From assembly GCA_965279165.1 (NCBI GenBank), contig OZ257140.1, positions 2,936,167-3,000,166 on the forward strand: a DNA stretch of 64,000 nt, given 5' to 3'. Origin of the DNA: Bacteroidia bacterium. Lineage in GTDB: Bacteria > Bacteroidota > Bacteroidia > UKL13-3. A model generated the notes under the pieces. It worked only from the letters and a program-made list of their open reading frames with translations. It did not search any database and was not told the DNA's origin. Each line of letters starts with the position of its first letter. Position 1 is the first letter of the stretch. The position numbers and the translations under genes are program-made. Below, piece after piece: positions 20,133 to 20,579 of the stretch.

Positions 20133-20207
20133 CGAAATGATAGGACATTGGACTTGGTCATTGGTGCATTACCAATGACCAATCGCCATTGACCAATGAC
20201 TTAAAAA

Positions 20208-20507
20208 GCCGTTGTAGCTCAGTGGTAGAGCATCCGCCGGTTGGCGGAGAAGAGGTTGAGAAGATAGGAAGTGAAGAAATAAGCCGTTGTAGCTCAGTGG
20301 TAGAGCATCCGCCGGTTGGCGGAGAAGAGGTTGAGAAGATAGGAAGTGAAGAAATAAGCCGTTGTAGCTCAGTGGTAGAGCATCCGCCGGTTGGCGGAGA
20401 AGAGGTTGAGAAGATAGGAAGTGAAGAAATAAGCCGTTGTAGCTCAGTGGTAGAGCATCCGCCGGTTGGCGGAGAAGAGGTTGAGAAGATAGGAAGTGAA
20501 GAAATAA
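20208..20507 (+). repeat. tandem array of four identical 75-bp units, each a 3'-truncated tRNA-Thr(GGT) copy with the anticodon arm replaced by a perfect GC hairpin
   Basis: The unit gccgttgtagctcagtggtagagca|tccgccggttggcgga|gaagaggttgagaagataggaagtgaagaaataa starts at 20208, 20283, 20358 and 20433. Its first 25 nt equal the 5' acceptor strand and D-arm of the tRNA at 20508. The next segment is a 6-bp/4-nt hairpin (tccgcc ggtt ggcgga), and the tail is purine-rich. The T-arm and 3' acceptor strand are absent. All three frames are open on both strands, so the ORF-track entries here are artefacts. Confidence 0.85.
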
Positions 20508-20579
20508 GCCGTTGTAGCTCAGTGGTAGAGCACTTCCTTGGTAAGGAAGAGGTCGCGGGTTCAATTCCCATCAACGGCT
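20508..20579 (+). tRNA. tRNA-Thr (anticodon GGT)
   Basis: Acceptor gccgttg/caacggc, D-arm gctcagtggtagagc, anticodon stem cttcc/ggaag with loop ttGGTaa, and T-loop ttcaatt. The T-stem has one C-A mismatch. Confidence 0.8.

Follow-up and report, generated by a model that had tools for sequence, protein, structure and literature searches.

Tandem, hairpin-bearing partial tRNA genes in a Bacteroidia chromosome: candidate footprints of a tRNA-targeting nuclease and palindrome system

Why should a bacterial chromosome carry, directly in front of a tRNA gene, a row of identical fragments of that same gene in which the anticodon arm is exchanged for a hairpin? The question is raised by a stretch of 64,000 nucleotides of a Bacteroidia bacterium (contig OZ257140.1 of assembly GCA_965279165.1), which is referred to here as the window and whose positions are used throughout. 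Four such fragments precede the gene for tRNA-Thr(GGT) and two precede the gene for tRNA-Trp. The answer preferred here, to which a probability of roughly 0.55 is given, is that the units are amplified footprints, lacking an open reading frame (ORF), of a tRNA-targeting nuclease/palindrome system that is widespread in Bacteroidota. The Thr and Trp units themselves are probably non-functional, recently amplified duplicates.

The tRNA-Thr(GGT) array spans 20208-20507 on the forward strand. Tandem Repeats Finder reports at 20206-20532 a period of 75 with 4.4 copies, 100% matches and a score of 654, and the four head-to-tail units, at 20208-20282, 20283-20357, 20358-20432 and 20433-20507, are letter-identical, as a first-pass annotation of this DNA had judged by eye. 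Each unit consists of nucleotides 1-25 of tRNA-Thr(GGT) in exact copy, the 6-bp/4-nt hairpin TCCGCC-GGTT-GGCGGA in the place of the anticodon arm, the sequence GAAGAGGT, which equals tRNA nucleotides 40-47, and 26 purine-rich nucleotides. In unit 1 these parts occupy 20208-20232, 20233-20248, 20249-20256 and 20257-20282, and the hairpins of the following units lie at 20308-20323, 20383-20398 and 20458-20473. The functional tRNA-Thr(GGT), parent of the copies, follows at 20508-20580 on the same strand, where it is called by ARAGORN and by the Rfam tRNA model (70.5 bits). The same two tools recognize five real tRNAs in the window (Thr-TGT, Tyr, Gly-TCC, Thr-GGT, and Trp) and give no tRNA score to any Thr or Trp unit even at E<=10; the expectation of one true tRNA beside four pseudo-units is borne out, and the units do not register as functional tRNAs.

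The origin of the 26-nt tail deserves some attention, because the copy had been described as diverging there into a purine-rich tail. The tail is purine-rich as stated, but it is not novel: it aligns with the window sequence directly 3' of tRNA-Gly (TCGAAATGATAGGA versus TTGAGAAGATAGGA) and also with the Gly-Thr spacers of relatives. By itself the alignment within the window is statistically weak (p = 0.14). Since the tail resembles what follows the 3' end of tRNA-Gly, it appears to be a copy of the Gly-Thr spacer, and the Thr unit is better read, from its letters, as a tandem duplication of the spacer plus tRNA nucleotides 1-47 with an exchanged anticodon arm. The letters GGT, to which attention had been drawn in the hairpin loop, are present, but they are probably a coincidence, since the corresponding Trp palindrome shows no CCA. 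The array is not of the CRISPR type, the units being identical and head to tail with no unique spacers, nor is it an integrase att duplication, as its tandem 5' fragments abut and no insertion separates the units; on both points the earlier view holds.

The tRNA-Trp locus has the same architecture, as had also been noticed. At 22085-22348 Tandem Repeats Finder gives a period of 117 with 2.3 copies and 98% matches. Two 5' pseudo-tRNA-Trp units, at 22089-22205 and 22206-22322 on the forward strand, precede the functional tRNA-Trp(CCA) at 22323-22394 on that strand (ARAGORN and Rfam). In order, each unit holds tRNA-Trp nucleotides 1-26, the perfect 16-bp palindrome TCCCGCACGTGCGGGA (22115-22130 and 22232-22247), nucleotides 42-55 and a 61-nt copy of the spacer, and may be read as a tandem duplicate of the spacer plus the first 55 nucleotides of tRNA-Trp. 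The two units differ at two positions, unit 1 having G at 22151 and 22163 and unit 2 having A at 22268 and 22280. In both arrays, then, the anticodon arm of each spare copy would have been swapped for a short, GC-rich member of a palindrome family whose ends are TCC...GGA.

Probable traces of 3' copies, both missed in the first-pass annotation, lie on the other side of the two real genes. A probable decayed 3' pseudo-tRNA-Thr occupies 20587-20652 (forward strand) and carries, at the position of the T-loop, the hairpin TTCCGAT-TAAT-ATCGGAA (20610-20627), which starts 30 nt downstream of the real tRNA-Thr and belongs to the family of the canonical palindrome TCCCGATAGCTATCGGGA. Its left flank matches tRNA-Thr nucleotides 31-53 (p = 0.018), the match of its right flank is not significant (p = 0.09), and its layout resembles that of the 3' pseudo-Thr copies found in the related loci L002, L003, L010, and L267. 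Downstream of tRNA-Trp, an exact 13-nt copy of nucleotides 46-58, a T-arm fragment, is present at 22405-22417 on the forward strand (shuffle test, p = 0.004); judging from its sequence, it is probably the remnant of a 3' pseudo-Trp copy. GC-rich hairpins with TCC...GGA ends occur in the 64-kb window only in the two arrays, besides which it holds the AT-richer TTCCGAT...ATCGGAA hairpin just 3' of tRNA-Thr. The window palindromes that replace an arm or loop of a copy, all with TC(C/T)...(G/A)GA ends, are TCCGCCGGTTGGCGGA, TCCCGCACGTGCGGGA, and TTCCGATTAATATCGGAA.

Are these arrays a peculiarity of one chromosome? Eighty related loci were obtained by a NusG-anchored search; they belong to metagenome-assembled genomes (MAGs) of uncultured Bacteroidia, many from lakes or ponds, with a best match that is 92% identical, and the window's own species is not among them. 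The real gene is single and intact in 58/58 loci covering tRNA-Thr(GGT) and in 75/75 covering tRNA-Trp. A strict probe of the 80 loci, allowing at most one mismatch in the first 22 or last 24 nucleotides of each tRNA, detects no extra copies outside the window. This result is misleading because the relatives carry other forms of copy, which were recovered by reading L001 and L002 by eye and then by a word-based scan. Hairpin-swapped partial copies of Gly, Thr, or Trp were found in this way in 11 of the 51 closest loci and in 0 of the 29 more distant ones, on either side of the real gene. They include 5' pseudo-Gly with the D-loop replaced by TCCCGATAGCTATCGGGA or by nested versions of it (L003, L005-L007), 3' pseudo-Gly with TCTCGT...ACGAGA hairpins (L001, L048), 3' pseudo-Thr with the T-loop replaced (L002, L003, L004, L010, L030), 5' pseudo-Trp with a D-loop hairpin (L030), and 3' pseudo-Trp with a T-loop hairpin (L051). 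Similar arrays thus exist in related genomes, on other tRNAs and in other copy numbers.

The closest relatives differ most tellingly. L261, L262, and L267 fall in the same NusG cluster as the window (at least 90% identity), and L261 and L267 are long contigs. At least nine 75-nt 3' pseudo-Gly units are present in L261 and L262, with neither pseudo-Thr nor pseudo-Trp in L261, while in L267 the canonical palindrome is carried by two 3' pseudo-Thr units of 100 nt, the only pseudo-copies there. The periods of related arrays are 67, 74, 59, 100, and 104-109. A partial tRNA copy in the same orientation, including the native leader or trailer, is shared by the window, L003, L005-L007, L010, L261, L267, and the nuclease locus L258 described below. 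The systematic mechanism that the first-pass annotation had preferred to one random duplication is thus upheld, hairpin-swapped copies recurring on other tRNAs in sister species and across Bacteroidota. To judge from the sequences compared, the arrays are recent, recurrent, and not conserved even between sister species. The real tRNA-Thr(GGT) is identical in L001, L261, and L267, and this identity beside arrays that are not conserved argues against a fixed regulatory role.

Some further observations were made in the same loci. The real tRNA-Thr(GGT) at 20508-20580 shows a C-A mismatch in the T-stem in the Rfam alignment; as it is kept in L001, L261, and L267, it is a lineage trait rather than damage. 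The spacer before tRNA-Trp contains in L261 (3230-3290) and L001 (1670-1725) a purine-rich GAGGA/GAGAG micro-repeat where the window has two pseudo-Trp units, so that the same spacer is unstable in different ways. Several MAG contigs end inside pseudo-tRNA arrays (L001, 1-130; L004, 22-38; L030, 67-84; L262, 1-200) and others have gaps within them (an N gap at 1327-1336 of L261 and an N run at 4053-4150 of L048). Such arrays systematically cause assemblies of this lineage to break at tRNA loci.

The hairpins within the copies belong to a larger family. The canonical palindrome, in the form TCCCGATARYTATCGGGA, was found in more than 120 metagenome stretches, which is a lower bound, and in 52 viral contigs. 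Its host contigs have a low GC content (median 0.41). Among 186 distinct sites only 23% lie in open frames of at least 120 codons, compared with 77% of random positions, which gives the family the character of short palindromes dispersed intergenically, as in REP-type repeats. An outer stem of at least 5 bp surrounds 12% of the sites (control 2%), for example at terminator tips; the idea that the palindrome always caps an existing hairpin was an overestimate. Direct words of at least 6 nt flank 14% of the sites (control 3%), often inside heptamer arrays, and the enrichment of flanking direct repeats is only modest. No conserved tetranucleotide is present in the flanks. Several copies are nested in one another, and in L099, L156, and L181 the canonical palindrome is embedded in heptamer arrays. 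In six viral and metagenome contigs (L089, L203, L205, L214, L232, L249) a second hairpin, CTCTCC-(TTCG/GAAG)-GGAGAG, stands beside the palindrome inside a CCCC/GGGG outer stem, which suggests a composite repeat of several mini-hairpins.

About 14 of 195 palindrome copies (about 7%) are found within partial copies of the tRNA next to them, and most of these show a fixed geometry. In upstream 5' copies the palindrome replaces D-loop nucleotides ~14-17, as seen for Ala, Leu, Phe, Met, Val, and, in a viral contig, Arg. In downstream 3' copies it replaces T-loop nucleotides ~59-61 (Leu, Ala), and in an Asn copy nucleotides ~46-53. The subtypes of the window behave in a similar way elsewhere: in L003 a pseudo-Gly has TCCGCC...GGCGGA where its anticodon arm should be, TCCCGC...GCGGGA takes that place in a pseudo-Val of L180 and in a pseudo-Ala of L177, the latter directly after a nuclease gene, and both are also seen as solo hairpins. 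The window Thr hairpin in its tRNA context has 0 matches in the viral contigs, and Rfam contains no family for the units or for the hairpin-bearing loci.

The nuclease gene of L177 provides the link to a protein. A small ORF lies there between an intact tRNA-Ala and the 3' pseudo-Ala with the swapped anticodon arm, and it encodes a GIY-YIG domain protein (PF01541, E = 7e-16). Homologous ORFs are similarly placed in L139 (Asn), L153 (Phe), and L157 (Leu). The family counts at least 3,808 homologues of about 93-105 amino acids in Flavobacterium, Pedobacter, and Bacteroidales, recorded only as "GIY-YIG nuclease family protein" or "putative endonuclease". In proteins of 83-105 amino acids, Pfam finds PF01541 and a weak T5orf172 match over the same stretch, and neither Pfam nor NCBIfam matches include a separate DNA-binding module of the NUMOD or helix-turn-helix kind. 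NCBIfam has no dedicated model, the similarity to TIGR01453 being below threshold and limited to the N-terminal motif. The family corresponds to the minimal stand-alone Slx1-like branch, which has been described with no link to tRNA (PMC1564403).

To what extent the nuclease genes are associated with hairpin-swapped tRNA copies can be seen from 15 loci, of about 9 distinct contexts, that were chosen by protein alone. A palindrome of the canonical family lies within ~130 nt of the ORF in 15/15, and in all 15 it is inside or beside a partial tRNA copy. An intact tRNA is present within ~150 nt of the ORF in 14/15; in the remaining locus, L278, a pseudo-Phe with two hairpins is found upstream of the ORF. 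The layout of L258 is especially close to that of the window. A promoter is followed by four 67-nt 5' pseudo-Leu units and tRNA-Leu(GAG), and then, twice in succession, by a GIY-YIG ORF and a near-full pseudo-Leu whose D- and T-loops hold palindromes, so that, in the order of its elements, L258 reproduces the window's arrangement of four 5' units upstream of an intact tRNA. L259, the same locus from another sample, has two 5' units versus four. Such a difference in unit number between assemblies of one locus agrees with the recent or ongoing expansion that had been proposed from the identity of the Thr units.

Other loci show amplification of the nuclease module itself. In L256 a tRNA promoter, a 5' pseudo-Phe, and an ORF are repeated three times ahead of the real tRNA-Phe. 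Since each copy has its own tRNA promoter and 5' pseudo-tRNA leader, the nuclease gene appears to borrow a tRNA promoter. At the syntenic Peptidase_M16/tRNA-Phe locus, three ORF modules are found in L256 and L260 and one in L271-L277, and no true empty site was recovered. Up to three consecutive GIY-YIG ORFs were observed in such tandem amplifications (L256, 1000-2688; L260; L258, 648-1620). A separate observation concerns the end of the ORF. In L177 (4666-4690, reverse strand), L253 (1485-1503), and L139 (11040-11042) its stop codon falls within the pseudo-tRNA that follows, or where that pseudo-tRNA starts, and is either a TAG in the D-loop or the TAA of GTTAA in the anticodon loop of Asn; tRNA-derived sequence accordingly encodes the final residues of the protein.

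Within the Asn, Leu, and Phe groups the nucleases are 70-80%, 86-95%, and 61-76% identical, respectively, compared with 30-51% between groups, and the clades so defined track tRNA identity. The distance from the hairpin to the tRNA-internal end of the unit is also confined to a narrow range, being 8 nt for Thr and 14 for Trp in the window, 10 in L258, 13 in L261, and 16 in L010, and 8-23 nt in ORF-bearing modules. A unit end only 8-16 nt past the hairpin fits a coupled process. Homologues of the nuclease are absent from the viral contigs, phage records, and plasmid records searched.

In the widespread system to which the window arrays are assigned, partial tRNA copies adjoin an intact gene, one or more of their D-loop, anticodon arm, and T-loop are exchanged for an 18-bp palindrome, typically TCCCGATAGCTATCGGGA, and the copies very often stand next to a nuclease gene whose clade matches the tRNA. 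The process might begin with a tRNA-specific nuclease that breaks the DNA in or next to a tRNA gene. Repair by unequal or short-homology recombination would then produce a partial duplication, one intact essential tRNA being kept, and a palindrome in the spare copy would disrupt a conserved tRNA motif, so that the copy is no longer a tRNA and presumably no longer a target. Unequal crossing-over could finally expand or contract the unit and give rise to identical copies. SegB of phage T4, to which we return below, offers a precedent. The anatomy, the dispersed palindrome family, its link to nuclease genes in other genomes, the agreement of nuclease clade with tRNA, and the variation between sister species and between assemblies are observed; we infer that the protein cuts DNA, and likewise what it cuts and what the palindrome does. 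A further generalization may be put forward tentatively, at somewhat less than even odds: a previously unrecognized class of selfish elements, built around a ~95-amino-acid Slx1-like GIY-YIG enzyme with one clade per tRNA gene, which would persist and spread through partial duplication of the essential tRNA target; the palindrome would neutralize the spare copy, solo palindromes would spread in host and phage genomes, and arrays without an ORF would be footprints left in trans.

Several findings weigh against the nuclease-based explanation. A hidden Markov model search of the 64-kb window, and of the 80 relatives to a distance of 6 kb, detects no GIY-YIG ORF of this family; for this reason the role of the nuclease at the window is an inference, and the arrays would have been made by an enzyme encoded elsewhere in the same genome. 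The palindromes of the window arrays share only the TCC...GGA ends with the canonical 18-mer, their inner sequence being different. The nuclease is minimal and, unlike Seg or I-Tev enzymes with their NUMODs, lacks a DNA-binding domain, which makes sequence-specific homing no more than a possibility. The element is always accompanied by an intact tRNA that is presumably cleavable, and immunity is not explained by simply supposing that the target is destroyed on insertion. The palindrome is also found in viral contigs that have no such nuclease, and at many sites unrelated to tRNAs, and it may spread or persist independently. Lastly, nuclease clades could match tRNAs through long vertical residence, with no targeting involved.

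Because of these weak points, the main rival is a REP-like palindrome family that colonizes chance slippage duplications. According to this explanation, a palindromic mini-element with TCC...GGA ends enters stem-loop DNA by itself, and slippage duplications beside tRNA genes serve as harmless landing pads, hits in a single functional tRNA gene being lethal; ordinary unequal crossing-over amplifies the unit, and the GIY-YIG genes of other genomes accompany the element or supply the mobilizing enzyme, but do not make the duplications. The dispersed and mostly intergenic distribution of the palindrome agrees with it, as do its enrichment on extended stems (12% versus 2%), its presence in heptamer arrays, its self-nesting, and its occurrence in viral contigs that lack the nuclease. 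The window arrays have no nuclease gene near them, and a genome rich in heptamer tandem repeats suggests frequent slippage. It is nevertheless considered less likely, because partial tRNA duplications are common exactly at the palindromes and have a fixed geometry, 5' copies lying upstream with the D-loop or anticodon arm affected and 3' copies downstream with the T-loop affected. The short distance from the hairpin to the inner end of the unit is hard to obtain from independent events, and the combination of palindrome and partial tRNA copy recurs at 15/15 nuclease loci. An origin in assembly is very improbable, although short reads cannot give the length of a perfect 300-bp tandem array, and related short-read contigs do end inside such arrays (L001, L004, L030, L262) or, as in L261, contain an N gap there. 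The NusG and EF-Tu genes of the window lie on one contig of 3,278,329 bp in a chromosome-scale assembly, the same kind of array is present in many independent assemblies and samples, and a hairpin swap is not something that an assembler can produce. No other contig on record encodes exactly the EF-Tu protein of the window.

A function as RNA, in which the co-transcribed 5' copies act as decoys or regulators of the folding or processing of the tRNA-Thr(GGT) or tRNA-Trp precursor by competing for the 3' acceptor strand, had been suggested by the first-pass annotation, and appears improbable. Its premise of co-transcription is reasonable. Within 19400-22700 a TAnnTTTG preceded by a TTTG near -34 occurs only once, as TACATTTG at 19642, upstream of tRNA-Thr(TGT), where it is part of a probable tRNA operon promoter of the Bacteroidetes type (TTTG ... 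TACATTTG, 19606-19649, forward strand, consensus match), and the CTACATTTGCAG promoter is also present in L261 and L267. As the sole consensus promoter in this region lies upstream of the operon, the arrays are inside a transcription unit with no internal consensus promoter. The proposed competition is also seen in the predicted fold. In the equilibrium structure of 20201-20590 the 3' acceptor strand pairs with unit 1 (p = 0.94) rather than with its real 5' strand (p = 0.001), the palindromes of neighbouring units pair with each other, and a local model with the true cloverleaf is 27 kcal/mol worse. The equilibrium fold ignores, however, co-transcriptional folding and the action of RNase P. 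Mis-pairing of the acceptor strand is thus physically possible according to this model and suggests a possible cost; it does not speak for a function. The sisters with identical tRNA-Thr and tRNA-Trp genes lack these arrays and have different ones, on other tRNAs, on the opposite side, and in other numbers (L261 has only pseudo-Gly and L267 only 3' pseudo-Thr), the copy number differs between assemblies of one locus (4 in L258, 2 in L259), and the units match no Rfam family. Arrays that are not conserved point to a tolerated cost rather than a function. Moreover, the same modules flank small nuclease genes in other genomes, which a selfish or mutational by-product fits better than a regulatory role.

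Remnants of integrase-mediated insertion, that is, att-site duplications left by genomic islands or prophages, are the least credible of the explanations weighed. It is true that tRNA genes are classic integration sites and that integration leaves partial copies (PMC9897764), and a tyrosine-recombinase-like ORF of the Xer/integrase type is present at 18176-19081, ~1.4 kb upstream and ahead of a hibernation-factor gene and the tRNA operon. That ORF is, however, syntenic with a Phage_integrase gene of L267, looks like a housekeeping gene of the Xer type, and is probably unrelated to the arrays. The copies are 5' parts, head to tail, 75-117 nt apart, with no island between them, whereas an integrase leaves one 3' fragment, at the distal end of an element of kb scale, and the palindromes are left unexplained by integration. 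A coding array was also considered, since open frames cross it and 75 and 117 are multiples of 3, and was rejected on the related periods listed above.

Other repeats are found in the window. As the first-pass annotation had indicated, a palindromic island at 20146-20200, in the Gly-Thr spacer, bounds the Thr array upstream. It is built of ACCAATG/CATTGGT heptamers and represents a different repeat class, with a fold z of -5.07 and a period of 7 at 20171-20200 (Tandem Repeats Finder). Heptamer tandem repeats are numerous between 2716 and 61609, for example ACTTATA x9.9 at 6249-6316 and ATGAATT x13.3 at 51345-51437, with others at 17723-17787, 16844-16881, 5148-5187, and 38548-38578; the island belongs to this kind of repeat, which resembles cyanobacterial STRR sequences. 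Between rplL and rpoB, three consecutive GC-rich hairpins at 25477-25556 are probably the classic attenuator or terminator of that operon. A GCA trinucleotide repeat at 25122-25177 (18.7 copies, 77% matches), within the L7/L12 gene, probably encodes the Ala-rich hinge.

In the literature searched, which left most subscription journals outside, no description was found of the palindrome (16-nt core), of hairpin-swapped tRNA copies, or of small GIY-YIG genes linked to tRNAs. A survey of prokaryotic tRNA fragments lists integrase att sites and CRISPR spacers as the only sources (PMC9897764). If the nuclease-based reading is true, the system would be a third one, and the stand-alone Slx1-like GIY-YIG family of bacteria, for which NCBIfam has no curated functional name, would gain its first biological context. 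It would also provide a REP-like palindrome family with a structurally precise tie to the D-, anticodon, and T-loops of tRNA, extend the idea developed for phage SegB, that nuclease breaks amplify tRNA loci, to bacterial chromosomes, and make tRNA loci hot spots of rapid structural change and assembly breaks. The small nucleases, if specific for tRNA genes or for structure, would be among the smallest site-selective nucleases known. Apart from mechanism, the arrays account for the many Bacteroidia MAG contigs that stop at tRNA genes, and they can mislead tRNA annotation and copy-number estimates.

The system may finally be compared with those already known. Small dispersed repeats (SDR) of about 20 nt, which Elhai et al. 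are said to have described in Genome Res in 2008 from Nostoc and related cyanobacteria, reportedly appear mobile and nest in each other, in heptamer tandem repeats, and in hairpin contexts. They differ from the Bacteroidota palindromes in phylum and in sequence, and SDR are not known to be associated with tRNA pseudo-copies or with a nuclease gene.

The attL/attR duplications of integrases are similar in that a partial tRNA copy lies near an intact one and the essential gene is preserved (PMC9897764). An integrase remnant, however, is one 3' fragment with several kb of island between it and the gene, while the copies described here are 5' or 3' parts, in tandem 59-117 nt apart, interrupted by a palindrome and accompanied by no integrase. 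REP and REPIN sequences with their RAYT (TnpA-REP) enzymes resemble the present system in having short palindromes dispersed between genes and a nuclease gene that is flanked by the repeats and presumably acts in trans (PMC3116915, PMC3733652). Unlike RAYT, the enzyme considered here is a GIY-YIG protein and not an HUH Y1 transposase, the palindromes show no GTAG or CGTC head, and, in contrast to REPs, those of Bacteroidota are only 16-18 bp long. REPs are not known to be tied to partial copies of a neighbouring tRNA.

The remaining comparison is with SegB of phages T4 and T6. SegB is a free-standing phage homing endonuclease of about 220 amino acids with a NUMOD DNA-binding part, whereas the Bacteroidota proteins are chromosomal, ~95 amino acids long, and Slx1-like with no extra domain, and their homologues are missing from the phage, plasmid, and viral collections searched. 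The units amplified by SegB contain whole tRNA genes and no palindrome-disrupted copies, in contrast to the partial, palindrome-disrupted units of the window. A Seg-like element has its GIY-YIG gene at the locus, which the window does not and the protein-chosen loci of other Bacteroidota do (15/15). The likeness lies in a GIY-YIG nuclease gene placed among tRNA genes. The T4 enzyme, itself of the GIY-YIG type, recognizes a 27-bp site within tRNA genes, whose essential core is the T-loop motif GGTTCRANTCC (PMC2330249), and the breaks that it induces drive an unstable, recombination-dependent tandem amplification of the tRNA-containing segment through microhomology (PMC13096335).

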